64,000 nucleotides of DNA from Verrucomicrobiia bacterium. GTDB taxonomy: Bacteria; Omnitrophota; Omnitrophia; Omnitrophales; Aquincolibacteriaceae. The first letter of the stretch is position 1. Every line of letters starts with the position of its first letter. The notes beneath the pieces were generated by a model. It did not search any database and was not told the DNA's origin. It worked only from the letters and a program-made list of their open reading frames with translations. The stretch covers positions 4,495 through 68,494 of the forward strand of contig DATJFP010000097.1 of assembly GCA_035495615.1 (NCBI GenBank). The letters run 5' to 3'. The position numbers and the translations under genes are program-made. Positions 33,948 to 50,229 of the stretch are shown one piece after another.

Positions 33948-36164
33948 TTAGGGCGCGCGTCTCAGCGGCATCAAGGCGTCCGCGGCGAAAACAAAGAGTG
34001 CCAGCGTGAAAAAGATACCATACGCGGCCACGGTAACGCTGCGGAAACTTTCGCCGTCATTCCAATAATATAATTTCACGCGATGCCTGCCGTGCGGAAC
34101 AAAAACAGCCTTGAAGCCGACGTTCGCGTGGTTGACCGCCGTTTGTTTTCCGTCGACGGACGCATGCCAGCCCGGATGCCAGGCATCCACGTAATAAAGC
34201 CAGGCGCCTTTCGGATAAGTGACGTCCGCCTCCGCCTCCAGGCGGTTGAAAGAAAAGTCCGTGACCTTGACGCGGCCCGCTTCCGCATTCGGCGCGGGAG
34301 TCCAGGATGCCTGGATTTCCGCGGGGATGCCTTCAAGGAAAACTTTTTCCGGCTCGCGATTCAGCCGGAAAAGGCTTTGTCCGGCCGACTCGGTGCTGGG
34401 CGAAAACTCGACGTCGGTGACAAGCCGCAGCTTCGGCCCTTCGCAGCCCACGGTGCCGAAGCACGAGCTGCGCGCGATCATGAAAAACTTTCCGAACCAT
34501 TCATTCCATTCGAAGTTGGTGTACTCCTCGGCGTGATAAGTGTCAAAGAAAAGGAAGTTGTAGATTTCCTTCTGGAACCGCGCCGGGCTGCGGTTCAAAA
34601 GCTCTTCGGCCTCGACCATGCGGGGCTGGGTTCCCTTCAGGCCCCGCGCCTCCTGATATTGAAACGGGAAAACCTCGAGAAGTTCGCGGCTCAGGCTGGC
34701 GATGCGCATGGGCCAGGTCTTGAAAAAAGCGGCCTGGAAAAGATAAAGGTTTGCCGTAAGGGCGGCCACGGCAATCAGTCCGCTCAAGCGGGGAAAACGG
34801 AAGGCCAGGAGAACCGCGAGGCCGCCGGCGGCCGTGATCACGAGGCCCTGCGAAAAAACCTGCGGCCACAACACCCAGTTGTCCGCCTGCATGGCGTCGA
34901 ACGGCAGGCGCATCCAGACCATGAACCCGAGGACGACGGCAAGGCTGGCCGGAAAAGCGAGGAGCACGCGCCGGCGCGCGGAGGAACCGGCCTCCGCCGC
35001 ATGCGCCAGGAAATGATCGAGGCCGAAACCCGCAAGCAAAATAAGAAACGGCCGCATCAGGCCGCCGAGAATGCCCACGTAACGGAAAAGGCGGATGGGC
35101 GGAAAAATTTCGTAGATGAATTCCGCGATGGGCGTGTTTGCGCCGAGAGAGAGCGCGCCGATCAGAAAGAGCGACGCGGCGAGCGCCGCATGAAAAAGAT
35201 TCCTTACACAAACGAGGCCGGTCAGGAGAAAGGCAAGCGTGAGCCCGCCGACGAAAACGCTCATCTTCAGCGGCACATAGGACGGGTAAAGGGCCGTCAG
35301 GAATTTTTCCGGCCCGGTATAGCCGCCGTGCTGGAGGAAAAGCTGCAGCGGCACCGTGAAATCGGAGCTTCTTCCTTGCTGCATGCTGTCGATGTGGTCG
35401 TACATGTGAAGCGCGAAAAGGACAAACAGGCCGGCCACGGCGAGAAAGGCCGCGGCGCCCGCGGCATTAGGCCCTTCCGGCGCGAAGAGTGTTTTGAAGA
35501 GCGTCCTTTTGCGGAAGATCATGAAAACGAGAAAGACGGAGACGATTAGCATGTTGAGCGCCGCGAAATAAGGCGGAATCCCGAATTGCACGGTGACCGA
35601 CACGAGGCCCGCAAGCCAGAGGTAAACCGCTTTTTCTCTTTTATAGAAAAGGACCAGGAAGTAAAGGATGAGCGGCAGCAGGTAGAAGATCCGGAAATTC
35701 CAGTAGACGTTCGTCAGCCAGATCGTGCTTCCCACCATCGCGACGGAGCAGAAAAGGACGGAGGCGCGTTTTTTGAAAAGTTCGCCGCCCAGAAGGGAAG
35801 TGCCGAGAACGAGCATGCCTTCTTCCAGCAGGATGGAAAATTTAAAAAGGAAATTAACGTCCCGGATGCGCAGAAGGCCGCCCGCGAGGCCCGCGAAGTA
35901 TTGGGCCGGGGTGAAGGTGTCGAGCTGCGCGTAGTCCATCGATATCCCATAAACGCCGTACGGGAACCACTGGGCCAGCTCATGATGGAAGAAAAAGTTG
36001 GTGTAATAGGTGTAAAAGCGCTGGAAAACGTAGATGGTATCGCCCTGGTACCAGACATGGCGGTCCCAGACCGGGAAGCGGAAGAGGGCCCAGGCCAGCA
36101 GCAGGAATAAAACTTCGGGCGCCCGGAAAAGGGCTTTTTTGTCGAAGCTGAGGGTTGTCTTCAT
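33948..36164 (-). CDS. YfhO-family large membrane protein
   Basis: 738 aa. C-terminal VDAWHPGWHASVDGKQTAVNHANVGFKAVFVPHGRHRVKLYY matches the YfhO C-terminal signature, and the N-terminal half is polytopic. Confidence 0.5.
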   Translation of the reverse strand: MKTTLSFDKKALFRAPEVLFLLLAWALFRFPVWDRHVWYQGDTIYVFQRFYTYYTNFFFHHELAQWFPYGVYGISMDYAQLDTFTPAQYFAGLAGGLLRIRDVNFLFKFSILLEEGMLVLGTSLLGGELFKKRASVLFCSVAMVGSTIWLTNVYWNFRIFYLLPLILYFLVLFYKREKAVYLWLAGLVSVTVQFGIPPYFAALNMLIVSVFLVFMIFRKRTLFKTLFAPEGPNAAGAAAFLAVAGLFVLFALHMYDHIDSMQQGRSSDFTVPLQLFLQHGGYTGPEKFLTALYPSYVPLKMSVFVGGLTLAFLLTGLVCVRNLFHAALAASLFLIGALSLGANTPIAEFIYEIFPPIRLFRYVGILGGLMRPFLILLAGFGLDHFLAHAAEAGSSARRRVLLAFPASLAVVLGFMVWMRLPFDAMQADNWVLWPQVFSQGLVITAAGGLAVLLAFRFPRLSGLIAVAALTANLYLFQAAFFKTWPMRIASLSRELLEVFPFQYQEARGLKGTQPRMVEAEELLNRSPARFQKEIYNFLFFDTYHAEEYTNFEWNEWFGKFFMIARSSCFGTVGCEGPKLRLVTDVEFSPSTESAGQSLFRLNREPEKVFLEGIPAEIQASWTPAPNAEAGRVKVTDFSFNRLEAEADVTYPKGAWLYYVDAWHPGWHASVDGKQTAVNHANVGFKAVFVPHGRHRVKLYYWNDGESFRSVTVAAYGIFFTLALFVFAADALMPLRRAP

Positions 36165-36330
36165 GAAGTCGGGTTTTAGCCGGGTGGAATCCAGGAACCC
36201 GGCTGCCCCGCTTGCCGGGACAAAATTTACTACGACATTTTTCGGAACTTACTGAATTTTAATCTTTTAAGCGTTCGAGCCGATAATATTGTTTCCTGAA
36301 CCGGCCTTTTGGCCGTCGGAAAGGAAGGAC

Positions 36331-37062
36331 ATGAACGCGCAAAATCGTGACCCCAAAGTCACGCTGGCCGTCTATACCCTCAATGAAATTGACGGGATGC
36401 GCGCGGTCATGCCCAAAGTCCGCAAAGAGTGGTGCGACGAAATCATCGTGATCGACGGCGGGTCCACGGACGGGACGGTCGAGTACGCCAGGGAGCAGGG
36501 CTATGCCGTTTACCGGCAGAAAGAGCCGCGGTGGGGCGGCGCGCACCGGGAGGCTTACAGCCGGGCCGCGGGCGACATCGTGATCGATTTTTCCCCGGAT
36601 GGGAATTCCGTGCCGGAACTCATCCCGCAGCTCGTGGCCAAGATCAAAGAGGGATACGACATGGTCATTGCGTCGCGTTATACCGGAGGCGCCAAAAGCG
36701 ACGACGACACCGCGGTGACGGGCTTCGGCAACAGTCTTTTTACATTTCTGGTGAACTTGCTTTTCGGCTGCCGGTATACGGATTCGCTGGTCATTTACCG
36801 CGCCTTCACCCGCCCGTTTCTCGAAAAAGCGGGGGTCGTCAACTGCAGCCTGCCGCAATGCGTGACCGTCCTGACCTGCATCCGGGCGGCGAAAATCAAG
36901 GCCAGGACCGCGGACGTGCCCGGGGACGAGCCTCCCCGCATCGGAGGCCACCCCAAGATGAACCCCTTGATCGACGGGCTGCGCGTGCTGGCCGTGATTT
37001 TTAAGGAATTTTTTATTCGCGATTTTAAAAAAAGCTGCGTTTCCCAGAACATTCAAGCGTGA
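36331..37062 (+). CDS. GT2 polyprenyl-phosphate sugar transferase (DPM1/ArnC/GtrB-like), paralog a
   Basis: VTLAVYTLNEIDGM…IIVIDGGSTDGT…DIVIDFSPDGNSVPE…GYDMVIASRY — the classic GT2 DxD-type layout. The ATG at 36331 is preceded by aaggaagg. Confidence 0.7.
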   Translation: MNAQNRDPKVTLAVYTLNEIDGMRAVMPKVRKEWCDEIIVIDGGSTDGTVEYAREQGYAVYRQKEPRWGGAHREAYSRAAGDIVIDFSPDGNSVPELIPQLVAKIKEGYDMVIASRYTGGAKSDDDTAVTGFGNSLFTFLVNLLFGCRYTDSLVIYRAFTRPFLEKAGVVNCSLPQCVTVLTCIRAAKIKARTADVPGDEPPRIGGHPKMNPLIDGLRVLAVIFKEFFIRDFKKSCVSQNIQA

Positions 37063-37144
37063 GGGTCGCTTTTGTGAGTTTTGGCGGGTACACTAATAGG
37101 GACGCGTCATCGCTTAACCGGTTATCCACCTCCTCGAGGGTTTC

Positions 37145-38137
37145 ATGATCATCAGCAGGACCCCCTTCAGGATTTCTTTCTTCGGCGGCGGCAGCGACTA
37201 TCCGGCCTGGTACTCCAAGTACGGCGGCAAGGTCATTGGCACGACCATCGACAAGTACTGTTATATCAGCTGCCGTTATCTCCCTCCGTTTTTTACCTAT
37301 AAACACCGGATCGTGTATTCCAACATGGAATACGTGAACGACCTTTCCGAGATTAAGCATCCGGCCGTCAAAGGAATCCTGGAAACCCTCAAGGTCGACC
37401 GCGGCATGGAAATCCATCATGACGGCGACCTGCCGGCGCGTTCCGGGCTGGGTTCGAGTTCGTCTTTTACCGTGGGCCTGCTGCATGCCCTTCACGCGCT
37501 GCATGGCAAATTTATTTCCAAACGCGATCTCGCCAACGAGGCCGTGCACATCGAGCAGGAAGTGCTCAAAGAAAACGTGGGCTCGCAGGACCAGATCCTC
37601 GCGGCTTACGGAGGCTTCAACATGATCGAGTTCCACCAGGGCGGCACGTACGATGTCCAGCCCGTGATCCTGCCCAAAGAACGCCTCACGGAATTCCAGC
37701 AGAACCTGATGCTCTGCTTCACAGGCATAACACGCATCGCCTCGACCATTGCCAAGGCGCACATCGACAACCTGGAAAAAAGGAAGCGCGAAATCCAGAT
37801 GATGCAGCAGATGACCCACGAGGCCATCAGCATCCTGCAAAGCTCCAGCCAGATCGACGAATTCGGCAAGCTTCTCCACGAATACTGGAACTACAAAAAA
37901 AGCCTCTCGGACAAAGTGACGACTCCCGAGGTGGACGAAATTTACACCGCCGCGCTCGAGGCCGGAGCCCTGGGCGGCAAGCTGCTCGGCGCGGGAGGCG
38001 GCGGATTCATGCTGTTTTTCGCCAAGCCGGAAGCGCAGCAAAAGATCCGGGAAAGGCTCAAAAAACTCGTCCATGTGGGCTTCCGTTTCGAATTTTCCGG
38101 AAGCAAAATCGTGATTTACGAACCCTACAACTTCTAG
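37145..38137 (+). CDS. GHMP sugar kinase, HddA-like (D-glycero-D-manno-heptose 7-phosphate kinase-like)
   Basis: MIISRTPFRISFFGGGSDYPAWY N-terminus and the PxRSGLGSSSS phosphate-binding loop. 330 aa. Confidence 0.6.
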   Translation: MIISRTPFRISFFGGGSDYPAWYSKYGGKVIGTTIDKYCYISCRYLPPFFTYKHRIVYSNMEYVNDLSEIKHPAVKGILETLKVDRGMEIHHDGDLPARSGLGSSSSFTVGLLHALHALHGKFISKRDLANEAVHIEQEVLKENVGSQDQILAAYGGFNMIEFHQGGTYDVQPVILPKERLTEFQQNLMLCFTGITRIASTIAKAHIDNLEKRKREIQMMQQMTHEAISILQSSSQIDEFGKLLHEYWNYKKSLSDKVTTPEVDEIYTAALEAGALGGKLLGAGGGGFMLFFAKPEAQQKIRERLKKLVHVGFRFEFSGSKIVIYEPYNF

Positions 38138-38139
38138 AC

Positions 38140-39099
38140 ATGAATAAAGAAAAAGCCAAACAGATTTACCACGATGTTTACCTGGTCCGCCGCTGCGAAG
38201 AAAAAATCCGCGACGAATACGCCTCGGACGCGATGAAAACGCCCGTGCATCTGCACGTGGGCGCCGAAGCCATCTGCGCGGGCGTCCTGGCCGCGCTTCC
38301 CAAAGGCCTCAAGGTTTTCGGGACTTACCGCAATCACGGGCTCTACCTGCCGCTCACGCAGGACCCGAAATCGTTTTTCGCGGAGCTGTACGGCAAGGCG
38401 ACAGGCTGCGCCCAGGGCAAGGCCGGTTCCATGCATCTCACCGCGCCCGAGCACGGGCTTTTTCTCACGTCCGCGGTCGTGGCCACGACGATTCCGGTGG
38501 CCGTCGGCGCCGCTCTCGCGCATCAGTACCGCAAAGAAAAAAACGTAGTGGCCGTTTTCTTCGGCGACGGCGCCGTGGAAGAAGGTGCGTTCTGGGAAAG
38601 TCTGAATTTTGCCTGCCTGAAACAACTTCGCGTCTTCTTTGTCTGCGAGGACAACGACCTGGCCATCCACACGCCGACCGCGCATCGCCAGGGCTTCAAG
38701 TCCATTCCCGAAGCGGCCGCGGGCTTCCGCTGCCACATGGCCACCGCGGACGGATGGGATCCGGAAACAGTTTACGCCGCGGCTTCCGGACTTCTTCAGA
38801 GAATGGAAGCCGAACCCAAGCCCTGCTTGCTGCATTTCAAATATTTCCGTTATCTCGAGCACGTAGGCGTGGGCGAGGATTTCAAATTCGGCTATCGCCC
38901 CAAGCCGGACGAGCCCGCGCTGCAAAAGTATGATCCTCTGAAAGCTGCCGAGCGCATGGCCGCCAATCACGGCCTTTCGGATTCCGACATCCAGAAGATC
39001 AACCAGGAAGTGGACGCACTTATCGAGGAGAGCGTGGCCAAGGCCAAGACCGACCCCTTTCCCGACGAACAGGAATTCGGACGCGGAGTCATGAGCTGA
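38140..39099 (+). CDS. thiamine-diphosphate-dependent dehydrogenase E1 alpha-like subunit
   Basis: A GDGAVEEGAFWESLNFA TPP-binding motif (GDG…N) and VGAEA…YRNHG regions resemble the PDH/acetoin-DH E1 alpha family. Confidence 0.7.
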   Translation: MNKEKAKQIYHDVYLVRRCEEKIRDEYASDAMKTPVHLHVGAEAICAGVLAALPKGLKVFGTYRNHGLYLPLTQDPKSFFAELYGKATGCAQGKAGSMHLTAPEHGLFLTSAVVATTIPVAVGAALAHQYRKEKNVVAVFFGDGAVEEGAFWESLNFACLKQLRVFFVCEDNDLAIHTPTAHRQGFKSIPEAAAGFRCHMATADGWDPETVYAAASGLLQRMEAEPKPCLLHFKYFRYLEHVGVGEDFKFGYRPKPDEPALQKYDPLKAAERMAANHGLSDSDIQKINQEVDALIEESVAKAKTDPFPDEQEFGRGVMS

Positions 39100-40289
39100 T
39101 GAAAGCCTCCCAGCCGGTTGAAAAATTGAACTGGCCGCTCATGGCAGACAATATTTTGCCCGAAGACCGGCAGGCCGTGATCGAGTTCCTGAAGCACAAC
39201 GACCGGCTCACGCAGTGGAAAGAAGTGCGCGCGTTCGAAAAGGAATGGTCCGAGTGGATCGGCGTGAAGCACAGCGTGTTCGTCAATTCCGGCGCGTCCG
39301 CGAACCTGATCACGCTGGCCGCGCTGAAAGAAATCGCCGGGCCGGGCGAAGTCATCGTGCCGACGCTGACCTGGGTGTCGGACATCGCGTCGGTGCTGCA
39401 GAACGGTTTCACGCCGGTATTCGTGGACATCAACCCGCGGCATCTCGGCATGGCCGAAGACGAGGTCGCCAAAAAGATTACGCCGAAGACCAAGGCGGTT
39501 TTCCTCACGCATATCCTCGGCTACAACGCGCTGACGGACGGACTGATGAAGACCCTGAAAGAAAAGAATATCCCGCTCATTGAAGACGGCTGCGAGTCGC
39601 ACGGCGCGCGCTTCAAGGGCAAGAGGATCGGCTCGTTCGGCTGGGCCTCCAACTTTTCCTTTTATTACGCGCATCACCTCAGCACCGTGGAAGGCGGCAT
39701 GGTGTGCACGAACGACGACGAACTGTACCAGATGATGCGCATGTTCCGATCGCACGGTCTGGTGCGCGAGATGGACGACGAAAGCCTCAAGAAGCGCTAT
39801 CACGAAAAGTATCCGGACCTCGACACGCAGTTTATTTTTGCATTCCCGGCCTACAACGTGCGCAGCACGGAGATCAACGCGGTATTCGGGCGCAACCAGC
39901 TGAAGCGGCTGCAGGACGAGATCGACGAGCGCAATGAAAACCTCAAAGTGTTTCTGGGCGGGCTCGATCCGGCAAAGTACCGCACGGATTTCGAATTGGA
40001 GGGCGTGAGCAATTACGCGTTAACGCTGGTGCTCCAGAAAAATTTCACGGACAGGGCGGAGAAGGTCACGAAGATGCTGGTCGAAGCCAACGTCGAATAC
40101 CGGCGCGGCACTTCCGGCGGCGGCAACCAGCTCCGCCAGCCGTACCTGAAAAGACTTTTCGGGGACGCGTACAAAAACTATCCCGAAGTCGAGCACGTGC
40201 ACTTTTACGCGTATTACATCGGAAATTATCCCGGCCTGGACAAGGGCTTGATCAAAAAACTCTGCGCCATGCTCAACTCGATCGATTGA
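39099..40289 (+). CDS. DegT/DnrJ/EryC1/StrS-family PLP-dependent sugar aminotransferase/dehydratase
   Basis: VNSGASANLI, GDEVIVP-like and FSFYYAHHLSTVEGG regions are typical of the DegT family. Its start shares a nucleotide with the E1 alpha stop (TGATG). Confidence 0.7.
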   Translation: MKASQPVEKLNWPLMADNILPEDRQAVIEFLKHNDRLTQWKEVRAFEKEWSEWIGVKHSVFVNSGASANLITLAALKEIAGPGEVIVPTLTWVSDIASVLQNGFTPVFVDINPRHLGMAEDEVAKKITPKTKAVFLTHILGYNALTDGLMKTLKEKNIPLIEDGCESHGARFKGKRIGSFGWASNFSFYYAHHLSTVEGGMVCTNDDELYQMMRMFRSHGLVREMDDESLKKRYHEKYPDLDTQFIFAFPAYNVRSTEINAVFGRNQLKRLQDEIDERNENLKVFLGGLDPAKYRTDFELEGVSNYALTLVLQKNFTDRAEKVTKMLVEANVEYRRGTSGGGNQLRQPYLKRLFGDAYKNYPEVEHVHFYAYYIGNYPGLDKGLIKKLCAMLNSID

Positions 40290-40293
40290 GGCC

Positions 40294-41334
40294 ATGAAAA
40301 AACACATCACTTACCGCGACGCGATCAACGAAGCCTTGATGGACGAAATGACGGCCGACGACCGCGTGTTCGTCTTCGGCCTGGATGTGCCCGACCACAA
40401 GCGCATCTTCGGCAGTACCGCGAACCTCGTCGAAAAATTCGGGCCGGAGCGCTGCTTTGCCACGCCGCTTTCCGAAGACGGCATGACGGGCGTTGCGCTT
40501 GGCGCGGCCCTCAGCGGGCTCAGGCCCGTGCACGTTCATATCCGCGTGGACTTCATGCTGCTTGCCATGAACCAGATCGCGAACATGATTTCCTGCGCGC
40601 GCTACATGACCGGCGGCAAGGTCAAGGTGCCGCTTGTCATCCGCGCCGTGATCGGCCGCGGGTGGGGCCAGGGCGCGCAGCACAGCAAGACGCTGCAGAG
40701 CATTTTCGCGCATATCCCCGGACTCAAAGTCGTGATGCCCACGAACCCGCAGGACGCGTACAGCCTTCTCCGGACTTCGATCCAGGACGAGGACCCGGTC
40801 ATTTTTCTCGAGCACCGCTGGCTCTACGACGCGTTCGGCGACGTGGACAAGGAATTCAAGATCCCGATCGGCAAGGCGCTGGTCAAGCGTGACGGCACGG
40901 ACATCACGGTCGTGACGACGTCCTGGATGATGGTCGAGGCCCTGAAGGCGCGCGAGATCCTGATGCGCCGCAACGTGTCCGTCGAAATTGTGGACGTGCG
41001 CACGATTGCGCCCGCGGACATGGACACCATCGCCGCGTCCGCGGCCAAGACCGGCCGCTGCATCGTGGCCGACTACGACTGGGTGCCCTGCGGTTTCAGC
41101 GCCGAAGTCGCGGCGGAAGTCTCGAAGCGCTGCTTCGGAAAATTGAAGCTGCCCGTCGAAAGGATCGGTTTTGCACCCACGCCCTGCCCGACGACACGTC
41201 CGCTCGAAAATCTTTTTTATCCCTCCGCGATCACCCTCATCAGAACCATCGAAAAAATGATGGGCCTTTCGGAAACCGATCTCTCCGGAGAAAAGTTTTA
41301 TTCCTGGGAAGAGCGGTTCAAAGGGCCTTTCTGA
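40294..41334 (+). CDS. E1 beta-like subunit (transketolase-like pyrimidine-binding + C-terminal domain)
   Basis: ITYRDAINEALMDEM…VFVFGLDV…FGPERCFATPLSEDGMTGVALGAALSGLRPV is typical of 2-oxoacid dehydrogenase E1 beta. Confidence 0.7.
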   Translation: MKKHITYRDAINEALMDEMTADDRVFVFGLDVPDHKRIFGSTANLVEKFGPERCFATPLSEDGMTGVALGAALSGLRPVHVHIRVDFMLLAMNQIANMISCARYMTGGKVKVPLVIRAVIGRGWGQGAQHSKTLQSIFAHIPGLKVVMPTNPQDAYSLLRTSIQDEDPVIFLEHRWLYDAFGDVDKEFKIPIGKALVKRDGTDITVVTTSWMMVEALKAREILMRRNVSVEIVDVRTIAPADMDTIAASAAKTGRCIVADYDWVPCGFSAEVAAEVSKRCFGKLKLPVERIGFAPTPCPTTRPLENLFYPSAITLIRTIEKMMGLSETDLSGEKFYSWEERFKGPF

Positions 41335-41343
41335 CGGAGCCGC

Positions 41344-42327
41344 ATGTTTAAGGGCAGAAAAATTCTCGTCACCGGAGGCACGGGGCTGATCGGCCGGCCG
41401 CTGGTGGAAATGCTGATCCAGGAAGGCGCGCACGTGAGGATCGCATCGCTCGACGATCCGTCGCGCGCGCATCCCAAGGCCGAATTCGTCCAGGCGAACC
41501 TCATGCATTTCGAGAATTGCGCCAAGGCCTGCCAGGGTATGGACGACGTGTTTCATCTGGCCGGCGTCAAGGGCTCGCCCGCCATGACCGCGAAGAAACC
41601 CGCGAGCTTTTTCGTGCCCATGGTGACTTTCAACACCAACATGATGGAGGCCGCGCGCCAGGCCGGCGTGAAGCGCTTCCTTTATACCAGCTCCATCGGC
41701 GTGTATGCTCCGGCCGAAGTTTTTCACGAAGATGATGTCTGGAAAACTTTTCCTTCGCCGAACGACCGCTTCGCGGGCTGGGCCAAGCGCATGGGCGAAC
41801 TGCAGGCCGAGGCTTACCAGATCGAATACGGCTGGAAAGACATCGCGATCGTGCGGCCGGCAAACGTGTATGGCCCCTTCGACAATTTCGACCCGCAGAA
41901 CGCCATGGTGATCCCGTCGCTCATCCGCCGCGCCATGGACGGCGAGAATCCATTGACGGTGTGGGGCGACGGCTCCGCGGTGCGCGATTTCATCCACGCG
42001 CGCGACGTGGCCCGCGGCATGATGCTCGCGCTCGAAAAAGGAGGCGGCCAGCCGCTCAACCTCGGAAGCGGCCTGGGCGTCAGCGTGAAGCAGATCGTGG
42101 ACATCATCGCGGCCAACATGCCCGTGAAGCCCAAAGTCGTGTGGGACACGTCCAAGCCTTCCGGCGACAAGAAACGGCTGATGGACATGACGCGGGCGAA
42201 AGCTCTCGGCTTCGAGCCGAAAGTCTCCATCGAAGAAGGCATCCGCGAAGTCATGGACTGGTATTCGAAAAACCGCGAAGAAGTAAACAAGCGCTACAAT
42301 GTTTTCACCGAGAAGAAATTTGCGTAA
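41344..42327 (+). CDS. NAD-dependent epimerase/dehydratase (GDP-fucose-synthase-like SDR)
   Basis: ILVTGGTGLIG Rossmann motif and the YTSS…Y…K region. 327 aa. Confidence 0.7.
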   Translation: MFKGRKILVTGGTGLIGRPLVEMLIQEGAHVRIASLDDPSRAHPKAEFVQANLMHFENCAKACQGMDDVFHLAGVKGSPAMTAKKPASFFVPMVTFNTNMMEAARQAGVKRFLYTSSIGVYAPAEVFHEDDVWKTFPSPNDRFAGWAKRMGELQAEAYQIEYGWKDIAIVRPANVYGPFDNFDPQNAMVIPSLIRRAMDGENPLTVWGDGSAVRDFIHARDVARGMMLALEKGGGQPLNLGSGLGVSVKQIVDIIAANMPVKPKVVWDTSKPSGDKKRLMDMTRAKALGFEPKVSIEEGIREVMDWYSKNREEVNKRYNVFTEKKFA

Positions 42328-42354
42328 GCGGCTCTGCCGCCGGCGGGTACTCGC

Positions 42355-43407
42355 ATGACGACTTCACTTGATTTGATTGCCTCGGATCCGGGCTTCAAGA
42401 CCACGAAGCTTTTCCGCGAGCTCCAAAAGAATCCCTTCGGCTTCATCGACGTCGGCGCGCTGGGCGGCATCCATCCCATCGTCGATCCCATCGCGGGCCT
42501 TACGCATGCCCTGTGCTTCGAGCCGGACGAAAAAGACTGCGAGGCCCTGAGGAACAAATACGCGGAAGCTTCTTCGTTTGCCCGCGTAACCGTGGAGCAG
42601 ACGGCGTTGGGCGCGCCCGGCAAGGAAAAGGAAAATCTCTACATTTCGAAAGTCGCGACCAACACGTCGCTTCTCAAGCCTAACCCGCACTTCATCAGCC
42701 GTTACCAGGCCAAGAAATTTGAAGTGGACCGCGTGCTGCCCATCCAGACGCGCACGCTGGACAGTGTCCTGGCCGGCGGGAAAGACCTCGGAGGCAGAAT
42801 GGGCGAAATGTTGAAGCTGGACACGCAGGGCAGCGAATACCGCATCCTGAAAGGCGCGGAGAAGCTTCTCGACAAGACTTGCCTCGCGGTGTGGTGCGAG
42901 GTGGAGTTTTTCGAAGTCTACGAAGGCCAGGAAACTTTTTCGGACATCGACAGGCTCCTGCGTGAGCATGGATTTTTGATTTACGGGATCTACCCGCATT
43001 ACCGTTCCACCAAATCGCTGGACCGCAGCCAGTACACGACCGAGGAGCGGCTGATGTGGGCCGACGCGGTCTTCATCAAGGACCCGCTCGACTCGCGCAA
43101 CCAAGGGCGCAAGTTTTCGGAGCGCGACCTCCAGAGTCTTGTCCTCATCGCGATGCTCACGCGGTTTTATGATTTCGCCCTCGAGCTCGTGCGCGGCCCT
43201 TATCCGGAGCCCGCGGACCGCAAGGCGCTGGAAAACCTGATCCTCACGCTCGCCAAAGTGGACAATTACGGCCTGAGGGACGACATCGAGCGTTTGAACA
43301 AGGCCTGCTCGAAAAATCCGGACCGGACGAACGTGCTGGTCGGGCTCTTTGTCTCGCGGCACCAGTCGAACAACACGGTGGACCATCTCCTGGACCGCGT
43401 CCGGTAG
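42355..43407 (+). CDS. FkbM-family SAM-dependent methyltransferase
   Basis: FIDVGALGG (compare the FkbM IDVGAN.G motif). 350 aa, sitting inside the sugar cluster. Confidence 0.5.
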   Translation: MTTSLDLIASDPGFKTTKLFRELQKNPFGFIDVGALGGIHPIVDPIAGLTHALCFEPDEKDCEALRNKYAEASSFARVTVEQTALGAPGKEKENLYISKVATNTSLLKPNPHFISRYQAKKFEVDRVLPIQTRTLDSVLAGGKDLGGRMGEMLKLDTQGSEYRILKGAEKLLDKTCLAVWCEVEFFEVYEGQETFSDIDRLLREHGFLIYGIYPHYRSTKSLDRSQYTTEERLMWADAVFIKDPLDSRNQGRKFSERDLQSLVLIAMLTRFYDFALELVRGPYPEPADRKALENLILTLAKVDNYGLRDDIERLNKACSKNPDRTNVLVGLFVSRHQSNNTVDHLLDRVR

Positions 43408-43459: not shown

Positions 43460-45208
43460 ATGAAACTGGGAAAAGTCTTCGTCGCCGGCGGCACCGGGCT
43501 CGTGGGAAAAAACATGGTGAAGCGCCTGGAAGCGATGGGCGTGGATTACCAGGCGAGCTACTACCAGTCCCAGCCTCTTTTTTGCCGCAGCAAATACCGC
43601 CGCGTGGATTTTCAGAAATTCGACGAGACCATGGAAGCCCTGAAAGGCGTTTCGGAACTCATCATCTGCGCGGCCGTCACGCACGGCGTGAAGAGGATGA
43701 AGGAAAATCCCGGCGCCGGCATCCTGCCCAACCTCAAAATCACCAGCCACCTGCTCGAAGCCGCGCGGCGCCAGAAAGTTTCACGCGTTGTTTTCCTGGG
43801 CAGCGGCACAGTTTACCAGGAAGCCGAGCATCCGATACGCGAGGACGACCTGAATCTCAATCTGCCGCCGTACGGCCTGTACCTGGGCATCGGCGGGCTG
43901 TCACGCTATCTGGAACAGCTTTGCTTTTTTTATGCGAAGCAGTTCGGCATGCAGATCGGCATTTTCCGGCTGTCGAATGTCTACGGCCCGCACGATCATT
44001 TCGGGGAAGACCGTTCCCACGTGCTGCCGGCGCTTATCCGCCGCGCGCTTAAAAAAGAAAATCCCTTCAAGGTGTGGGGCCGCGCCTCGGTGGTCCGCGA
44101 TTTCATTTACGTCGAGGACGTGGTCGAGGCCATCCTGCGGCTGCTCGACAAGCATTGCCGCCCGGATCCCATCAATTTCAGCTACGGCAAAGGCGTCACG
44201 ATCGGAGAAGCCGTAAAAACCATCCTGCAGGTCTGCGGCCATTCCGTGGCGCCGCAGTATGACGAAAGCGCGCCGACCGCCATTCCTTACCGCGTGCTGG
44301 ACTGCACCAAATTCGAGCAGCTGCTCGGGCCGCTGCCGCGCACCTCGCTCGAAGAGGGCGTGCGCAGGACCGTGGCCTGGGCCGTGGAAGAAGACATTTT
44401 CAAGACGCGCGCCGCGAAAACGGCCCCGAAGACCCGCTACCTCCTGACCGGCGTATCGAGCGGGCTTGGGCGCTACCTGCATGAGAGGCTGGGCGGCGAG
44501 GGGCTCACGCGTGAAAATGCTCCGGAAGTTCTGGAAAGCGCGCGCGCCAAGGGCTGCGACGTCGTCGTGCATGCGGCATTCAGCGCGCCGAAGACCGGGC
44601 CTTCTTCGATGCTCGCGGCCTGCCTCGAGGACAACATCGGGCTCACGCAGAAGCTCGCCGAAGTGCCGCACCGCAAGATGATTTATATTTCCTCGATCGA
44701 CGTTTATCCCAAGACGCCAGGCCCGCACAGCGAGGATGAGGACATCCACTTCCGCGACATCGCGGGATTTTACGGCATCATGAAGCTGACCTGCGAGGCT
44801 CTCGTCCAGCAGAAATGCCCGAACCATCTTATCCTGCGCTGCTCCGCGTTTTTGGGGCGGTATTCCCGCAAGGCCAATCTCAAGGTGATCGCCGAAGACC
44901 CGAAGCCCGAACTGAAGCTCCAGGCGGGCTCGCGTTTCAATTACATCCTCCATGAAGACGTGGCGGCCTTTATCGAATACGCGGTCGAGCACGACCTGCG
45001 CGGCATCTACAACGTCGCATCCAGCGGCGCGGTCACGCTTTCCGAAATCGCGGAGTGGGTTAAGAAAAAGCCCGTGTATGGCGATTACCTTTATGATTCC
45101 GGGGACATCTCCAACCGTAAAATTGCGGCGGTTTTCCCCGCGCTGAAAAAAACATCGCGCCAGGTCGCGGAACATTTCCTGGCGAGCGAATATTCTTATT
45201 CTTTTTAG
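43460..45208 (+). CDS. two-domain SDR: N-terminal Fcl/GDP-sugar epimerase-reductase-like + C-terminal second NAD(P)-binding reductase-like domain
   Basis: First Rossmann motif VFVAGGTGLVG with Y…K and a WG..S.VRDFIYVED block. A second Rossmann motif LLTGVSSGLGRYL opens the C-terminal ~260 aa. Confidence 0.55.
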   Translation: MKLGKVFVAGGTGLVGKNMVKRLEAMGVDYQASYYQSQPLFCRSKYRRVDFQKFDETMEALKGVSELIICAAVTHGVKRMKENPGAGILPNLKITSHLLEAARRQKVSRVVFLGSGTVYQEAEHPIREDDLNLNLPPYGLYLGIGGLSRYLEQLCFFYAKQFGMQIGIFRLSNVYGPHDHFGEDRSHVLPALIRRALKKENPFKVWGRASVVRDFIYVEDVVEAILRLLDKHCRPDPINFSYGKGVTIGEAVKTILQVCGHSVAPQYDESAPTAIPYRVLDCTKFEQLLGPLPRTSLEEGVRRTVAWAVEEDIFKTRAAKTAPKTRYLLTGVSSGLGRYLHERLGGEGLTRENAPEVLESARAKGCDVVVHAAFSAPKTGPSSMLAACLEDNIGLTQKLAEVPHRKMIYISSIDVYPKTPGPHSEDEDIHFRDIAGFYGIMKLTCEALVQQKCPNHLILRCSAFLGRYSRKANLKVIAEDPKPELKLQAGSRFNYILHEDVAAFIEYAVEHDLRGIYNVASSGAVTLSEIAEWVKKKPVYGDYLYDSGDISNRKIAAVFPALKKTSRQVAEHFLASEYSYSF

Positions 45209-45213
45209 GAGCC

Positions 45214-46218
45214 ATGATGGACGAGAAGAAAATCAAAAAAGTGCTGATCACCGGCATCGCGGGTTCGGGAGGCAGTTATCTGGCGGAATACATCGTGAAC
45301 CATCATCCCGGCGCCCAGGTGCACGGCATGGTGCGCTGGCACAGCGCCGCGGGGAAGGAAAACCTCGCGAACGTTTTGGACCGCGTCCAGCTCCACGAAT
45401 GCGATCTCAACGACATGGTTTCCGTCCTCGAAGTGATGAAAAAGGTAAAGCCCGATGCCATTTTTCATCTGGCCTCGAACGCGAATGTGCGCGCGTCTTT
45501 CATTTATCCCCATGCGGTGCTGAGCAACAACATCCTCGGCACCTGCAATCTTTTCGAAGCCGTGCGGCTTACCGGGATCGACCCTTTGATCCAGCATTGC
45601 TCCACGTCCGAAGTCTACGGCCAGGTGGACCCCAAGAACGTGCCGATCAAGGAAGACTGCCCGATCCAGCCGTCCAGCCCTTACGCGGTGTCGAAAGTCG
45701 CGCAGGATTTTCTGGGGCTCACGTATTTCCGCAGTTACAACATGAAAATTATCCGCACGCGCATGTTCGCCTACATTAATCCGCGGCGCGCGGACCTTTT
45801 CGCCACGTCGTTCGCGAGGCAGGTGGCGCGCATCGAGGCCGGACTCCAGAAAGAGCTCAAGCACGGGAACCTCGATTCGATCCGCACCATGATCGACGTC
45901 CGCGACGCCATGGAGGCGTACTGGGTGGCGCTCGTGCACTGCAAGGCGGGCGAGACCTACAACATCGGAGGCAAGACCACGATTTCCGTAGGCGATTTTC
46001 TGGAGCTGCTCAAAAAGCACGCGAAGACCAAGATCCCGACGGTTCAGGACCCGGCACTGCTGCGGCCCGCGGACGTGACGCTCCAGATTCCGGACACGTC
46101 AAAGTTCAAGGCCGCCACGAAGTGGGAACCGAAGATCAGCTTCGAAGAAAGCGTGGTCAGCCTGCTCGAAGAATGGCGGCGGCGCGTGAAGCGCGAAGCC
46201 GCGGAGGCGAAATCATGA
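45214..46218 (+). CDS. GDP-mannose/heptose 4,6-dehydratase-like SDR (GMD family)
   Basis: KVLITGIAGSGGSYLAEYIV…HGMVR resembles the GMD N-terminus (ITGITGQDGSYLAE…HG). SPYAVSK catalytic region. Confidence 0.55.
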   Translation: MMDEKKIKKVLITGIAGSGGSYLAEYIVNHHPGAQVHGMVRWHSAAGKENLANVLDRVQLHECDLNDMVSVLEVMKKVKPDAIFHLASNANVRASFIYPHAVLSNNILGTCNLFEAVRLTGIDPLIQHCSTSEVYGQVDPKNVPIKEDCPIQPSSPYAVSKVAQDFLGLTYFRSYNMKIIRTRMFAYINPRRADLFATSFARQVARIEAGLQKELKHGNLDSIRTMIDVRDAMEAYWVALVHCKAGETYNIGGKTTISVGDFLELLKKHAKTKIPTVQDPALLRPADVTLQIPDTSKFKAATKWEPKISFEESVVSLLEEWRRRVKREAAEAKS

Positions 46219-46910
46219 GCGGCCGGCCGACGTTCACGCTTTTCATGCCGACGATGAACGAAGTCGAGGGCATGAAGGCCATGATGCCGCGCGTGAATAA
46301 AGCCTGGGTGGACGAGATTCTGGTCGTGGACGGCGGCTCCAGGGACGGCACGCTGGAATACGCCGAGGCGGAAGGCTACCGCATCGCGCATCAGACCAAG
46401 ACCAAAGGCATCATGGGTGCTTACATGGAAGGCCTGCCGCACGTCAAAACTGACGTGGTGATCGCGTTCAGCCCGGACGGCAATTCGCTTCCCGAGCGCA
46501 TCCCCGCGCTTGTCGAAAAAATGAAAGAAGGCTACGACATGGTGATCGTGTCCCGGTATCTCGACGGCGCTAAAAGCGAGGACGATGATCCGGTGACGGC
46601 GTTCGGCAACTGGATGTTCACGACCATGATCAATGTCGCGTTCGGCGGTCATTATACGGATTCGCTCGTCATGTTCCGCGCGTGGGTCAAAGATTCCCTG
46701 GGTTCGATTTCGCGCGTGGAATTCCCGCGCGCCGGATTCGAGCCGCTCATGTCCATCCGCTGCGCCAAGGAAAAAAGAAAAGTCACGGAAATCCCGGGCG
46801 ATGAGCCCAAGAGAATCGGCAGCGCGCGGAAAATGGACCCGCTGAAAAACGGCATGGACATCCTTCGCCTCATCGCGGCCGAAAAAATGGCGCGGGGACG
46901 GCGTCCATGA
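46216..46910 (+). CDS. GT2 polyprenyl-phosphate sugar transferase, paralog b
   Basis: FTLFMPTMNEVEGM…ILVVDGGSRDGT…AFSPDGNSLPE…GYDMVIVSRY. The ATG overlaps the upstream stop (ATGA). Confidence 0.7.
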
Positions 46911-47590
46911 AAGTCACCCTCCTCCTGCCGACTCTGAACGAGGTCGAAGGCATGAAGGCCGTGCTGCCCCGCATCCGCCGTGAATGGGTGGACGAGATCT
47001 TCGTCGTGGACGGCGGTTCCACCGACGGCACGATGGAATACGCGAAGGAACAGGGATGCCGCGTATTGCGTCAGACACGCAAAGGCGTGCCCGGCGCATA
47101 CCGCGACGCGCTGGAACACATCGACAGCGATATCATCATCACCTTCAGCCCTGACGGCAATTCGGTCCCGGAAAAAATCCCGGAGCTGATCGCCAAGATG
47201 AAAGAGGGCTACGACATGGTCGTTGTCTCGCGCTACATGCCGGGAGCGAAAAGCGAGGACGACGATCCGGTGACGGCCTTCGGCAACTGGATGTTCACAA
47301 AAATGATCAACATCCTGTTCGGCGGAAATTCCACGGATTCGCTGGTCATCTTCCGCGCCTGGAAAGCGGACCTGGTCAAAAAGGCGATCGAAGTGCCGCC
47401 GCGCGCGGGCTACGAATTGTACACGACGATCTACTGCGCCAAGCACAAACTGAAGACCGCGGACATCCCCGGCGACGAGCCCAAACGCATTGGCGGCGAG
47501 CGCAAGATGAACCCGCTGAAGAACGGCCTCGCGGTCCTGGGGCTCATCCTTTCCGAAAAGTTCTGCCCTCACCGGGGGAAACATGAGTAA
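46907..47590 (+). CDS. GT2 polyprenyl-phosphate sugar transferase, paralog c
   Basis: VTLLLPTLNEVEGM…IFVVDGGSTDGT…TFSPDGNSVPE…GYDMVVVSRY. Overlaps the upstream stop. Confidence 0.7.
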   Translation: MKVTLLLPTLNEVEGMKAVLPRIRREWVDEIFVVDGGSTDGTMEYAKEQGCRVLRQTRKGVPGAYRDALEHIDSDIIITFSPDGNSVPEKIPELIAKMKEGYDMVVVSRYMPGAKSEDDDPVTAFGNWMFTKMINILFGGNSTDSLVIFRAWKADLVKKAIEVPPRAGYELYTTIYCAKHKLKTADIPGDEPKRIGGERKMNPLKNGLAVLGLILSEKFCPHRGKHE

Positions 47591-48554
47591 GAAGAAGCTG
47601 CTGCTTTGCGGCGCCACGGGATTCATCGGCCGCAACATCCTGGAATCGCTTATCCGCAGTGACGCTTACGAGATTACCGCGGTCCATCATAAAAAGAATC
47701 CCCCTGACACGCTTGCGAAGGAAAAGAAGATAAAATGGGTCCAGGCCGATCTCACGCAGGCCGGCGACGTCGCCCGCGTCATCCCGGGCCAGGAAATCCT
47801 GGTGCAGGCCGCGGCCACGACTTCCGGCGCGAGGGACATCGTGACGAAGCCCTTTTATCACGTCACGGACAACGCGGTCATGAATTCGCTGCTTTTCCGC
47901 AGCGCGTACGAGAACAAGCTGAAGCACGTGGTGTTTTTCAGCTGCACGACCATGTACATGCCGCAGGACTCGCCGGTGAAGGAAGAGGATTTCAAAGGCG
48001 AGATGATCGACAAGTATTTCGGCGTGGGCTGGACGAAAGTCTACATCGAGAAGATGTGCGAGTTTTACGCGCGCCTGGGGCCGGCGAAATACATCGCGAT
48101 CCGGCATTCGAATATTTACGGCCCGCACGACAAATACGATCTCGAGCGCTCGCATGTGTTCGGCGCGACGGTCGCTAAGGTCATGGCCGCGAAAGACAGA
48201 GTGGAAGTGTGGGGCGACGGCTCGGACGAGCGGGACCTGCTCCACGTGGATGATCTCGTGGATTTCGTGGAGCTCGCGCTGGAAAAGCAGGACAAGCCCT
48301 TCGAGCTTTTGAATCTGGGCTCGGGCGTTTCGGTTTCGGTGAAGCAGCTTGTGGAAGCCATCATCCGCGCGTCCGGAAAGAAGCTGGACGTTCATTACGA
48401 TTTGTCGAAGCCGAGCATCGGCTTCAAGCTCAAGATCAATCTCGACAGGACGCGGAAAAATTTTGGCTGGAAGGCTCGCTTGGGGCTCGACGAGGGCATC
48501 CGGAAAACGCTTGAATGGTACCGTGCGAATTATAAGCCTGAGCCGGCGGTTTGA
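47583..48554 (+). CDS. NAD-dependent epimerase/dehydratase
   Basis: LLLCGATGFIGRNI Rossmann motif and a Y…K segment. 323 aa. Confidence 0.7.
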   Translation: MSKKKLLLCGATGFIGRNILESLIRSDAYEITAVHHKKNPPDTLAKEKKIKWVQADLTQAGDVARVIPGQEILVQAAATTSGARDIVTKPFYHVTDNAVMNSLLFRSAYENKLKHVVFFSCTTMYMPQDSPVKEEDFKGEMIDKYFGVGWTKVYIEKMCEFYARLGPAKYIAIRHSNIYGPHDKYDLERSHVFGATVAKVMAAKDRVEVWGDGSDERDLLHVDDLVDFVELALEKQDKPFELLNLGSGVSVSVKQLVEAIIRASGKKLDVHYDLSKPSIGFKLKINLDRTRKNFGWKARLGLDEGIRKTLEWYRANYKPEPAV

Positions 48555-49258
48555 TGGAAGCGATTATCCTCGCCGGTGGGCTCGGTACGCGCCTCGGCGC
48601 GTTGACGCGGGACGTTCCCAAGCCCATGGTGCCGGTGAAGGGCCGGCCGTTCCTGGAATACCTGATGGATTACTGGCGCGGGCAGGGCATCACAGGCTTT
48701 GTGCTGTCGGTGGGTTATAAGTCCGAAGTCGTGCAGTCCCATTTCGGCGCAAGTTACAAAGGCGCGCCCGTGCGGTACAGCGTGGAAAAAGAGCCTCTCG
48801 GTACTGGCGGTGGTTTGCTTCAGGCCCTGCGCATTTGTTCGGGCAAAGGGCCGGTGCTGGCGCTGAACGGCGATACTTTTTTTGCCGCCGGATTAAAGCC
48901 GCTGGCGGATTTGTACGGCAAAGCCAAGGCGGATCTGGTCATGGCGCTTTTTGAAGTGGCATCGCGTGACCGTTACGAAGGCGTCGCGCTCGAAGCCTCG
49001 GGCCGCATCAAAAAATTTATCCGGCGCGAAGACAAACAGCTTTGCCAGTTCGCCAACGGCGGCGTTTATCTGATCAATCCAGCGCTGGCGCAAGGCGCGC
49101 CGGAAGGGAAGGCGTCGCTGGAAAACGAATTGCTGCCCGCGTGGCTTTCGCAGAAAAAAGCCGTTTACGGCGCGGCGGCGCATGGAACCTTTATTGACAT
49201 CGGAACGCCCGAGGATTACGCTCGGGCCGAACAAGTGCTGGCCCGGGGACAGGTCTAA
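48551..49258 (+). CDS. sugar-1-phosphate nucleotidyltransferase, HddC-like (heptose-1-P guanylyltransferase-like)
   Basis: MEAIILAGGLGTRL…VPKPMVPV.G.PFLEYL. At 235 aa, size and N-terminus match HddC/GMP-type small nucleotidyltransferases. Confidence 0.65.
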   Translation: MMEAIILAGGLGTRLGALTRDVPKPMVPVKGRPFLEYLMDYWRGQGITGFVLSVGYKSEVVQSHFGASYKGAPVRYSVEKEPLGTGGGLLQALRICSGKGPVLALNGDTFFAAGLKPLADLYGKAKADLVMALFEVASRDRYEGVALEASGRIKKFIRREDKQLCQFANGGVYLINPALAQGAPEGKASLENELLPAWLSQKKAVYGAAAHGTFIDIGTPEDYARAEQVLARGQV

Positions 49259-49269: not shown

Positions 49270-50229
49270 ATGAATAGGAAAGGAGTTCCCTTGAGCGAAC
49301 GTATTTTGGTTACCGGAGGCGCGGGCTATCTCGGGTCCATCATGGTCCCGGAACTTTTGAACGCGGGCTACCAGGTCACGGTCCTGGACAATTTCATGTA
49401 CCATCAGAACAGCCTGAACCATGTGTGCGCGAACCCGAAATTCGAGGCCGTGCGCGGAGACACGCGCGACGCAAAGGTGATGAAAGCTCTGCTCGCTAAA
49501 GCCGACGTCATCATTCCCCTTGCCGCGCTTGTCGGCGCGCCGCTCTGCGACCGCGATCCCATCGCGGCCACGACCACCAACCGCGATGCCGTCGTGAGCA
49601 TCGTCAAGGCGCTCAGCAAGGAACAGAAAATCCTGATGCCCGTCACCAACAGCGGCTACGGCGTGGGCGAAAAAAACAAGGAATGCACGGAAGACTCGCC
49701 GCTCAATCCCATTTCGCTGTACGGACGTGACAAGGTCGAAGCGGAACAGGCGATTCTCAGCCGGCCGAATTCGATCAGCTTCCGTCTGGCCACGGTTTTC
49801 GGCATGAGCCCGCGCATGAGGATCGACCTTCTGGTCAACGATTTCACTTACCGCGCGGTCTATGACCGGTTTATCGTGCTTTTCGAGGCGCATTTCAAGC
49901 GCAACTACGTGCACGTCCGCGACGTGGCGCGCGTTTTCCTGCACGGCCTCAAGAATTTCGACAAGCTCAAGGGGCAGGCGTATAACGTGGGGCTTTCGGA
50001 CGCCAATTTGTCCAAGCTCGAGCTCGCGCAGCGCATCAAGAAGTTCATCCCTTCGTTTACGATCATGGAAGCGCCTGTCGGCGAAGACCCGGACAAGCGT
50101 GATTACATCGTGTCCAACGCGAAGATCGAAAAGACCGGCTTCAAGCCGCAGCATTCGCTGGACGACGGCATCCGTGAATTGATCAAGGGCTACACCATGA
50201 TCAAGAACACGATTTACACCAACATTTAA
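49270..50229 (+). CDS. NAD-dependent epimerase/dehydratase
   Basis: ILVTGGAGYLGS Rossmann motif. 319 aa. Confidence 0.65.
   Translation: MNRKGVPLSERILVTGGAGYLGSIMVPELLNAGYQVTVLDNFMYHQNSLNHVCANPKFEAVRGDTRDAKVMKALLAKADVIIPLAALVGAPLCDRDPIAATTTNRDAVVSIVKALSKEQKILMPVTNSGYGVGEKNKECTEDSPLNPISLYGRDKVEAEQAILSRPNSISFRLATVFGMSPRMRIDLLVNDFTYRAVYDRFIVLFEAHFKRNYVHVRDVARVFLHGLKNFDKLKGQAYNVGLSDANLSKLELAQRIKKFIPSFTIMEAPVGEDPDKRDYIVSNAKIEKTGFKPQHSLDDGIRELIKGYTMIKNTIYTNI

Follow-up and report, generated by a model that had tools for sequence, protein, structure and literature searches.

What does a thiamine-diphosphate-dependent E1 enzyme of the pyruvate dehydrogenase (PDH) type do in a nucleotide-sugar operon, where it has neither an E2 nor an E3 partner? 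This question is raised by three genes at positions 38140-41334 of a 64,000-nucleotide stretch (the window) of contig DATJFP010000097.1, from a Verrucomicrobiia bacterium placed in the Omnitrophota by GTDB: an E1alpha gene and an E1beta gene separated by a gene of the DegT family. A first-pass annotation of this DNA proposed that the E1 pair transfers C2 units to a sugar and that the DegT protein, as an aminotransferase, points to a branched or acylated amino-sugar product. We found that C2 branching still appears to be the best-fitting function, judging by gene context in 86 related loci and by a tree in which E2-linked AcoA/PdhA proteins fall outside the glycan-linked clade, and that the middle gene is most likely a dehydratase. 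In our reading, the trio is probably the core of a C-branched deoxy-heptose pathway for a cell-surface glycan, in which the E1 pair would attach a pyruvate-derived C2 unit to C4.

We confirmed the trio itself: the open reading frames (ORFs) lie where first described, and their Pfam matches are much too strong to be due to chance. All three genes are on the + strand. E1alpha (38140..39099; 319 aa) carries PF00676 (1.8e-49) and the thiamine motif GDGAVEEG...CEDN, the DegT/DnrJ/EryC1-family protein (39099..40289; 396 aa) carries PF01041 (1.6e-70), and E1beta (40294..41334; 346 aa) carries PF02779 (Transket_pyr, 6.7e-33) and PF02780 (Transketolase_C, 9.5e-31). As the first pass had noticed, E1alpha and DegT overlap by one base (TGATG, 39097-39101), which belongs both to the stop codon TGA (39097-39099) and to the start codon ATG (39099-39101), and 4 nt separate the DegT stop from the E1beta start. 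This overlapping order of E1alpha, dehydratase and E1beta suggests co-translation and may allow channelling of a labile 3-deoxy-4-keto intermediate. By alignment, E1alpha keeps the His at the position of human alpha-His263, and E1beta keeps the residues that correspond to Glu59 and His128 in the G. stearothermophilus subunit. The top NCBIfam families for the pair are PDH E1alpha (246 bits; equivalog cut-off 394) and PDH E1beta (298 bits; equivalog cut-off 321). Since the + strand genes match their families strongly, we took the overlapping ORFs on the opposite strand (38134-38970, 38967-39803 and 40273-41997) to be spurious high-GC ORFs.

The assignment of the middle gene as an aminotransferase did not hold. 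We found that the closest solved relative of the DegT protein is ColD, the 3-dehydratase of GDP-4-keto-6-deoxy-mannose that uses pyridoxamine phosphate (2gms; 3e-46, full-length alignment) and that its closest NCBIfam family is RfbH, another 3-dehydrase. Its motif FYYAHHLSTVEGG aligns with FYSHHIATMEGG of ColD, in a register fixed by the H188N mutant chain 3b8x; the first His is His192, which lies opposite the catalytic His188 of ColD and stands where aminotransferases have the Schiff-base Lys. A His at the Schiff-base Lys position marks the subclass of sugar 3-dehydratases (ColD, CDP-hexulose dehydrase E1 and SpnQ), and in ColD a change of this residue to Lys was shown to be needed for transamination. 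Since His192 replaces the Lys and ColD is the closest solved relative, the DegT protein is most likely a pyridoxamine phosphate (PMP)-dependent sugar 3-dehydratase. This identity leads us to predict a 3-deoxy C-branched sugar instead of the amino sugar first proposed.

Within this subclass, the protein appears to be ColD-type rather than E1/SpnQ-type, since it has only three Cys residues (165, 203 and 389), none of them clustered, and no E1/SpnQ-type [2Fe-2S] Cys motif. This motif separates ColD from the E1/SpnQ dehydrases, which need a reductase. The Yersinia dehydrase, unlike the window protein with its lack of the Cys motif, contains an Fe-S cluster and works with a partner reductase. An E1/SpnQ-type Fe-S dehydrase served by a Rieske-domain ORF of the operon (50339..51331) was considered and rejected; the Cys motif is missing, and we found no counterpart of the Rieske ORF in the other loci.

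The claim that no E2 or E3 gene lies near the trio stood throughout the window. We searched ~60 ORFs covering its 64 kb with Pfam and NCBIfam and found no lipoyl, 2-oxoacid_dh or pyridine-nucleotide-disulfide oxidoreductase domain among them. Likewise, a six-frame motif scan found no E2 or E3 signature in the window, and tblastn with three genuine E2 proteins from metabolic operons gave no match there. In the metabolic outgroups (Thermus, Desulfotalea, Paracoccus and Streptomyces), a lipoyl-domain ORF directly follows E1beta in 4/4 cases; it is a full E2 in three of them and an 82-aa lipoyl protein in Thermus.

We then compared the trio with its relatives elsewhere. The E1alpha of the window has an identical counterpart in a Verrucomicrobia metagenome-assembled genome. 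One genome per species was scanned for relatives of E1alpha, of which at least 521 were found and the best 80 kept; cultured carriers were added from plasmids, and the window proteins were mapped onto 86 loci in all. These loci span at least 12 phyla, and nearly all of the best 80 are from uncultured bacteria. Carriers include Omnitrophota, Nitrospira (Nitrospirota), Planctomycetia, Elusimicrobiota, delta-proteobacteria, Verrucomicrobiota, Candidate Phyla Radiation groups, Saganbacteria, Dehalococcoidales, Acidobacteriota and one Thermoplasmata archaeon. The cultured plasmid carriers are Solidesulfovibrio magneticus RS-1 (pDMC1) and Azospirillum species, among them A. ramasamyi and A. lipoferum 4B. 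We found a lipoyl or E2 domain in none of loci L001-L087. A crude neighbour-joining tree of E1alpha, built without bootstraps, shows one large clade of glycan-linked proteins to which the E2-linked AcoA/PdhA proteins do not belong, and this comparison with metabolic E1 enzymes speaks for the C2-branching claim of the first pass.

The partners of E1alpha in these loci are informative. E1beta is present in 81/86 loci, an HddA-like kinase in 49/86 and a DegT protein with the His substitution (His-type) in 48/86, while a Lys-type DegT alone is seen in 3/86. A Cj1427-like gene is found in 38/86 loci, 36 of which also have a His-type DegT. Seventeen of the 86 loci have no His-type DegT and carry a DmhA-like gene instead; hence, the E1 pair tracks with makers of 4-keto sugars. 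The gene order of the trio varies: E1alpha-dehydratase-E1beta, as in the window, L002-L005, L007, L009, L024 and L033, makes up one subclade of the tree described above, E1alpha-E1beta-dehydratase is found in Planctomycetes, and dehydratase-E1alpha-E1beta elsewhere. On pDMC1 the order is GT2 (glycosyltransferase family 2), GT2, radical SAM, NUDIX, kinase, E1alpha, E1beta, Fcl-like, DegT, short-chain dehydrogenase/reductase (SDR), nucleotidyltransferase, PMT-like transferase and lhgO; the E1alpha and E1beta of this plasmid are WP_043602384 and WP_012750632. The sedoheptulose-7-phosphate isomerase GmhA is encoded in L024 (of the window's own clade), L041 and L056, with a weaker GmhA-like ORF in L034, and Azospirillum has a fused HddC-like/GmhB protein.

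Several single loci deserve mention in their own right. L053, from a Gemmataceae metagenome-assembled genome, has at ~4638 (+) an ORF of 272 aa that bears DHRVMDG, the motif of the E2 catalytic domain, and lacks a lipoyl domain, ~5 kb upstream of its E1 pair; this is the sole E2-like element in 1.3 Mb of loci. Apart from the cultured carriers, plasmid tblastn returned the metabolic outgroups plus a single Streptomyces pair that is not set among sugar genes. The latter (L088, Streptomyces griseofuscus plasmid pSGRIFU1, 11998-14044) is a stand-alone E1alpha/E1beta pair adjoining a condensation-domain protein, an acyl carrier protein, a ketosynthase and a thioesterase, a secondary-metabolite setting, and in the tree it splits off close to the base of the glycan-linked clade. 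Two different E1alpha/E1beta pairs stand side by side in L035, L040, L041, L043, L045, L055 and L056, which may reflect two branching steps or two donor specificities. Radical SAM genes lie beside the E1 cassette in L001 (13047-15020; Ca. Nitronereus, B12-binding) and L087 (6928-8433; S. magneticus), and L001 also has an aldo-keto reductase gene there; these genes may tailor the branch further.

The first pass had placed the trio in a sugar-nucleotide operon, and its neighbours (+ strand; genes considered from 36289 to 52517) are indeed nucleotide-sugar enzymes. Beyond that annotation, we found that the 14-kb operon is most likely a GDP-heptose pathway, with a GDP-heptose as the substrate. An HddA-like GHMP anomeric sugar kinase, heptose-7-phosphate kinase-like (37145..38137; GHMP_kinases_N and _C), has HddA as its closest NCBIfam family (157 bits; cut-off 600) and the heptose kinases 3k85, 4usk and 4n3o as its closest solved relatives (E ~1e-37). 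For the HddC-like sugar-1-phosphate guanylyltransferase (48551..49258; PF00483, 6.8e-26), the closest NCBIfam family is HddC (168 bits; cut-off 300), followed by mannose-1-phosphate guanylyltransferase. A GDP-heptose/GDP-mannose 4,6-dehydratase-like SDR (DmhA-like; 45214..46218; PF16363, 4.6e-71) has 7us5 as its closest solved relative, and a Cj1427-like GDP-heptose C4-dehydrogenase (49270..50229) matches PDB 6vo6 at 7e-121, with 58% identity over 311 aa.

Cj1427 is a GDP-heptose C4-dehydrogenase that holds its NADH tightly and re-oxidises it with alpha-ketoglutarate, which becomes L-2-hydroxyglutarate (PMC10680097). Two genes downstream of the Cj1427-like gene we found the L-2-hydroxyglutarate oxidase LhgO (51321..52517; NCBIfam NF008726, 364 bits; cut-off 299), and this neighbour supports the Cj1427 assignment independently. 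By tblastn, LhgO is found in 7/86 loci; gene calls or annotations show it also in L002 (as a DAO-family protein) and on the S. magneticus plasmid (as lhgO). Its gene recurs by cassettes with a Cj1427-like gene in L002, L006, L012, L013, L021, L033, L067 and L087. The alpha-ketoglutarate chemistry of the Cj1427-like gene is thus backed indirectly, by the adjacent LhgO and by its recurrence.

From these assignments we propose the following route. The genes for GmhA and GmhB would lie in another part of the genome. The Cj1427-like dehydrogenase would oxidise C4 of a GDP-heptose with alpha-ketoglutarate as the oxidant, and LhgO would turn the resulting L-2-hydroxyglutarate back into alpha-ketoglutarate; alternatively or in addition, the DmhA-like 4,6-dehydratase would give a 4-keto-6-deoxy sugar. 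The ColD-type PMP enzyme would take off the 3-hydroxyl while converting glutamate to alpha-ketoglutarate and ammonia, and its product would be a GDP-3-deoxy- or 3,6-dideoxy-4-keto-heptose. The E1alpha/E1beta heterotetramer would decarboxylate pyruvate on thiamine diphosphate, and the hydroxyethyl carbanion, with no lipoyl-E2 acceptor at hand, would go onto the C4 ketone to form a 4-C-acetyl tertiary alcohol. We propose 4-C-acetyl branching since the E1 pair tracks with makers of C4 ketones and since precedents add C2 units to such ketones. On paper, the dehydratase, the Cj1427-type enzyme and LhgO also close a cofactor loop, from glutamate to alpha-ketoglutarate to L-2-hydroxyglutarate and back to alpha-ketoglutarate. 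More tentatively, and with slightly less than even confidence, we suggest that these loci define a new class of surface sugars: nine-carbon 3-deoxy-heptoses with a C4-acetyl or hydroxyethyl branch, made in at least a dozen mostly uncultured phyla by a conserved cassette that has its own cofactor loop and joins E1alpha/beta branching of the actinomycete type to GDP-heptose chemistry of the Campylobacter type.

The later steps would fall to the remaining genes of the operon, with Fcl-like SDRs reducing or epimerising the branched sugar and an FkbM protein methylating it. Directly after E1beta, a GDP-fucose-synthase-like SDR (41344..42327; PF01370, 1.3e-51; NCBIfam Fcl, 154 bits; cut-off 500) is an epimerase/reductase candidate that possibly reduces the acetyl branch; an Fcl-like SDR with 68-89% identity follows E1beta in L002, L004, L007, L024 and L028. 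A second Fcl-like SDR (47583..48554; PF01370, 1.2e-40; NCBIfam Fcl, 130 bits) is a candidate C4-reductase/epimerase. Between them lies a fused double SDR (43460..45208; PF01370 in two stretches, RmlD_sub_bind) with an Fcl-like N-half and an RmlD-like C-half, and the same 590-aa fusion is present in L002. The FkbM-family methyltransferase (42355..43407; PF05050, 5.3e-14), also found in L001, L004 and L026, is a probable O-methyltransferase of the sugar.

For export, GT2 enzymes would load the sugar on polyprenyl phosphate, and YfhO-type GT-C enzymes would move the lipid-linked sugar to a surface acceptor outside the membrane. We found three GT2 genes of the polyprenyl-phosphate sugar synthase type. 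The first (36289..37062; PF00535, 1.4e-14) is closest in NCBIfam to AglJ and dolichyl-phosphate hexose transferase, both under cut-off; the second (46215..46910; PF00535, 3.5e-18) is AglJ-like; and the third (46907..47590; PF00535, 6.3e-19) resembles AglJ and dolichyl-phosphate hexose transferase. The ORF of the second gene runs from 46122 and is most likely over-extended; we placed the start at 46215 instead, where an ATG and the stop of the preceding gene overlap (ATGA). Divergent from the operon, a YfhO-like polytopic membrane glycosyltransferase of the GT-C type (33948..36164, - strand; PF09586, 2.6e-09) has 10 hydrophobic segments, and YfhO homologues stand at the same place in L002 and L004. 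The Rieske ORF (50339..51331; 330 aa; C-terminal [2Fe-2S] domain, PF00355, 4.3e-11) overlaps the LhgO start with its stop by 11 nt, and whether it is part of the system is uncertain. A promoter and terminator scan of 35900-52800 gave counts equal to those in shuffled sequence, so we drew no operon boundaries from it.

The proposed chemistry has precedents in actinomycetes. The alphaKADH2 E1alpha/beta enzymes of aldgamycin, avilamycin, paulomycin, kosinostatin and kibdelomycin biosynthesis are proposed to add the C2 unit of pyruvate to keto sugars, and KbDH was shown to do so in vitro (PMC12247030; PMC4753412). Like the window pair, AviB1/AviB2, Pau11/Pau12, the aldgamycin and kosinostatin enzymes and KbDH-alpha/beta are of the two-subunit E1 type without E2 or E3, and they are likewise encoded in nucleotide-sugar clusters beside keto-sugar-forming enzymes. 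The alphaKADH2 enzymes serve antibiotic biosynthesis in Actinomycetota, whereas the window pair is in a cell-envelope glycan operon and has relatives in many phyla. Known alphaKADH2 substrates are TDP-activated hexoses or pentoses, often 2,6-dideoxy. The operon described here, unlike the alphaKADH2 clusters, has predicted GDP-heptose chemistry, a ColD-type 3-dehydratase, a Cj1427-like dehydrogenase and LhgO.

The same logic is known from a sugar of a surface polysaccharide, yersiniose A (CDP-6-deoxy-4-hexulose 3-dehydrase E1/E3, YerE and YerF), where His-type deoxygenation at C3 is followed by thiamine-dependent acylation at C4 and ketoreduction (PMC9306805; PMC12247030). The sugar that YerE branches, CDP-3,6-dideoxy-4-keto-glucose (PMC9306805), is an acceptor of the kind proposed here, and YerE-like enzymes include ErwE, MMAR_2332 and MygE. 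However, YerE is a single-chain, acetolactate-synthase-like flavoprotein from another thiamine superfamily, while the window enzyme is a two-subunit E1 outside the YerE family, though it may act in a similar way, and the yersiniose sugar is a CDP-hexose.

Homologues of nearly all enzymes of the Campylobacter jejuni capsular GDP-heptose toolkit (HddA, HddC, Cj1427, DdahA/DmhA, the HS:5 C3-dehydratase and Fcl-like C4-reductases) are present here, although the window lacks a cupin-type epimerase. In vitro, the C. jejuni C3-dehydratase forms 3-deoxy-4-keto sugars from two substrates, the product of Cj1427 and the 6-deoxy-4-keto-heptose, and the combination of Cj1427 and C3-dehydratase has been run to GDP-3-deoxy-4-keto-heptose, for which an m/z of 616.08 is reported (PMC10680097). 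An inventory of 20 C. jejuni heptose enzymes contains no thiamine enzyme, C-branching or LhgO (PMC10680097). Our literature searches found neither thiamine-dependent heptose branching nor E1 pairs in envelope glycan clusters. The export genes recall three-component extracytoplasmic glycosylation (CsbB-YfhO, GtrB), in which a GT2 polyprenyl-phosphate sugar synthase acts with a flippase and a YfhO, PMT or GT-C transferase. Here, the sugar genes are flanked by a YfhO-like membrane protein and by three GT2 genes of the AglJ/DPM kind, and the S. magneticus cassette has a PMT-like transferase. Unlike them, no flippase was identified here, and the donor sugar would be unprecedented.

Several points weigh against a branched-heptose pathway. 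Each enzymatic step is read from homology and gene context, and the likeness to AviB1/AviB2 is one of domain make-up and gene context. The DegT protein is only 29% identical to ColD, whereas His-type DegT proteins at the equivalent position in other loci reach 45-50% and the C. jejuni dehydratases 62-67%. None of four proteins (E1alpha, E1beta, kinase and nucleotidyltransferase) reaches its NCBIfam equivalog cut-off, so the exact substrates are uncertain. The structure 6vo6 is that of Cj1427, with which its PDB molecule name, 'Putative sugar-nucleotide epimerase/dehydratease', is consistent. Domain scans of the ORFs found neither GmhA nor GmhB in the window, and literature searches found no branched heptose of this type. 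Finally, 10/37 loci of at least 18 kb have no recognisable 4-keto-forming enzyme within 10 kb.

Among the other explanations, one that we regard as unlikely is that the E1 pair leaves the sugar alone and handles 2-oxo acids around the pathway. It could decarboxylate pyruvate or alpha-ketoglutarate and so balance glutamate, alpha-ketoglutarate and L-2-hydroxyglutarate, or it could supply an acetyl group or aldehyde for an O-substituent. Such a role would suit an operon in which the dehydratase makes alpha-ketoglutarate, the Cj1427-like enzyme uses it and LhgO is adjacent, but the 17 loci that combine an E1 pair with a DmhA-like gene have no His-type DegT, so no alpha-ketoglutarate cycle is expected in them. 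Further, the conserved neighbours of the pair include neither an acyltransferase nor a CoA or lipoyl acceptor, and E1alpha/beta enzymes that form heterotetramers belong to the pyruvate, acetoin or branched-chain types rather than to the 2-oxoglutarate type.

We give equally little credence to an upstream role resembling that of 1-deoxy-D-xylulose 5-phosphate synthase, in which the pair would join pyruvate to an aldose or aldose phosphate and the resulting deoxy-ketose would then be activated by the kinase and nucleotidyltransferase. In its favour, few partners accompany the pair as constantly as these two enzymes, which fall under the HddA and HddC cut-offs, and most clusters have neither GmhA nor GmhB. 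Yet the protein at 49270-50229 is 58% identical to 6vo6 (Cj1427), and Cj1427 acts on GDP-manno-heptose; the DmhA-like, GmhA and GmhB-fusion genes of related loci also fit the standard heptose route. Moreover, a His-type dehydratase needs a nucleotide-diphosphate-activated 4-keto sugar, which gives the acceptor type of the known branching enzymes.

The amino-sugar product of the first pass, with the DegT protein as a pyridoxal-phosphate aminotransferase and the trio making a branched or N-acylated amino sugar, is now very unlikely. In its favour are the DegT/DnrJ/EryC1 fold itself, the three related loci with only a Lys-type DegT, and the transamination of the branch ketone in the related actinomycete pathway to kibdelomycin (PMC12247030). 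Against it, besides His192 at the Schiff-base Lys position, as in ColD and the Fe-S 3-dehydrases, and ColD as the closest solved relative, we found the His-for-Lys substitution in four divergent DegT subfamilies that adjoin E1 pairs. A His-type DegT is present in 48/51 scorable loci with a neighbouring DegT gene, and the operon has no second DegT gene.

Least probable of all, and hardly credible in our view, is an ordinary pyruvate or acetoin dehydrogenase E1 that landed in a sugar operon by chance, with its E2 and E3 encoded elsewhere: its top family matches are PDH E1alpha and E1beta and the catalytic His residues of lipoamide acylation are kept, but both subunits fall under the equivalog cut-offs, 86/86 relatives are in glycan loci and 0/86 have an E2, E2-linked E1alpha proteins lie outside the clade, and a dehydratase gene with overlapping codons sits between the subunits.

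A 2025 review assigns E1alpha/beta branching to actinomycete secondary metabolites and the branched sugars of lipopolysaccharide to YerE-type enzymes (PMC12247030). The branched-heptose pathway, if correct, would extend E1-type branching to cell-envelope glycans and GDP-heptoses and would mean that many environmental phyla make a new branched sugar of nine carbons. The neighbouring LhgO offers a genomic rationale for the alpha-ketoglutarate-dependent reaction of Cj1427, and such 'DegT aminotransferases' are probably mis-annotated His-type dehydratases, which our analysis corrects. Cultured carriers (S. magneticus RS-1 with pDMC1 and the Azospirillum plasmids) make the prediction directly testable, and the enzymes would be of biocatalytic interest for forming tertiary alcohols.

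The rest of the window holds further genes of note. Four tandem paralogous membrane proteins of ~570 aa (9879-16758, +; 43-47% identical; 8-9 hydrophobic segments; one with PMT_2) precede the sugar operon by 20 kb; they look GT-C-type and could use polyprenyl-phosphate sugars. Between the two glycosyltransferase regions lies a glycogen-type cluster (16867-25254, +) that encodes glycogen phosphorylase, a branching enzyme of GH57 and a GH57/DUF3536 protein. A 504-aa methyltransferase ORF (31632-33146, -) overlaps a 513-aa membrane ORF and, because of this overlap, is probably over-extended, with its start near 32380. Finally, a 571-aa ORF (27743-29458, +) fuses an MbnB/TglH/ChrH-family (DUF692) domain to DUF2063, a pairing typical of systems that modify ribosomally synthesised and post-translationally modified peptides or are related to metals.

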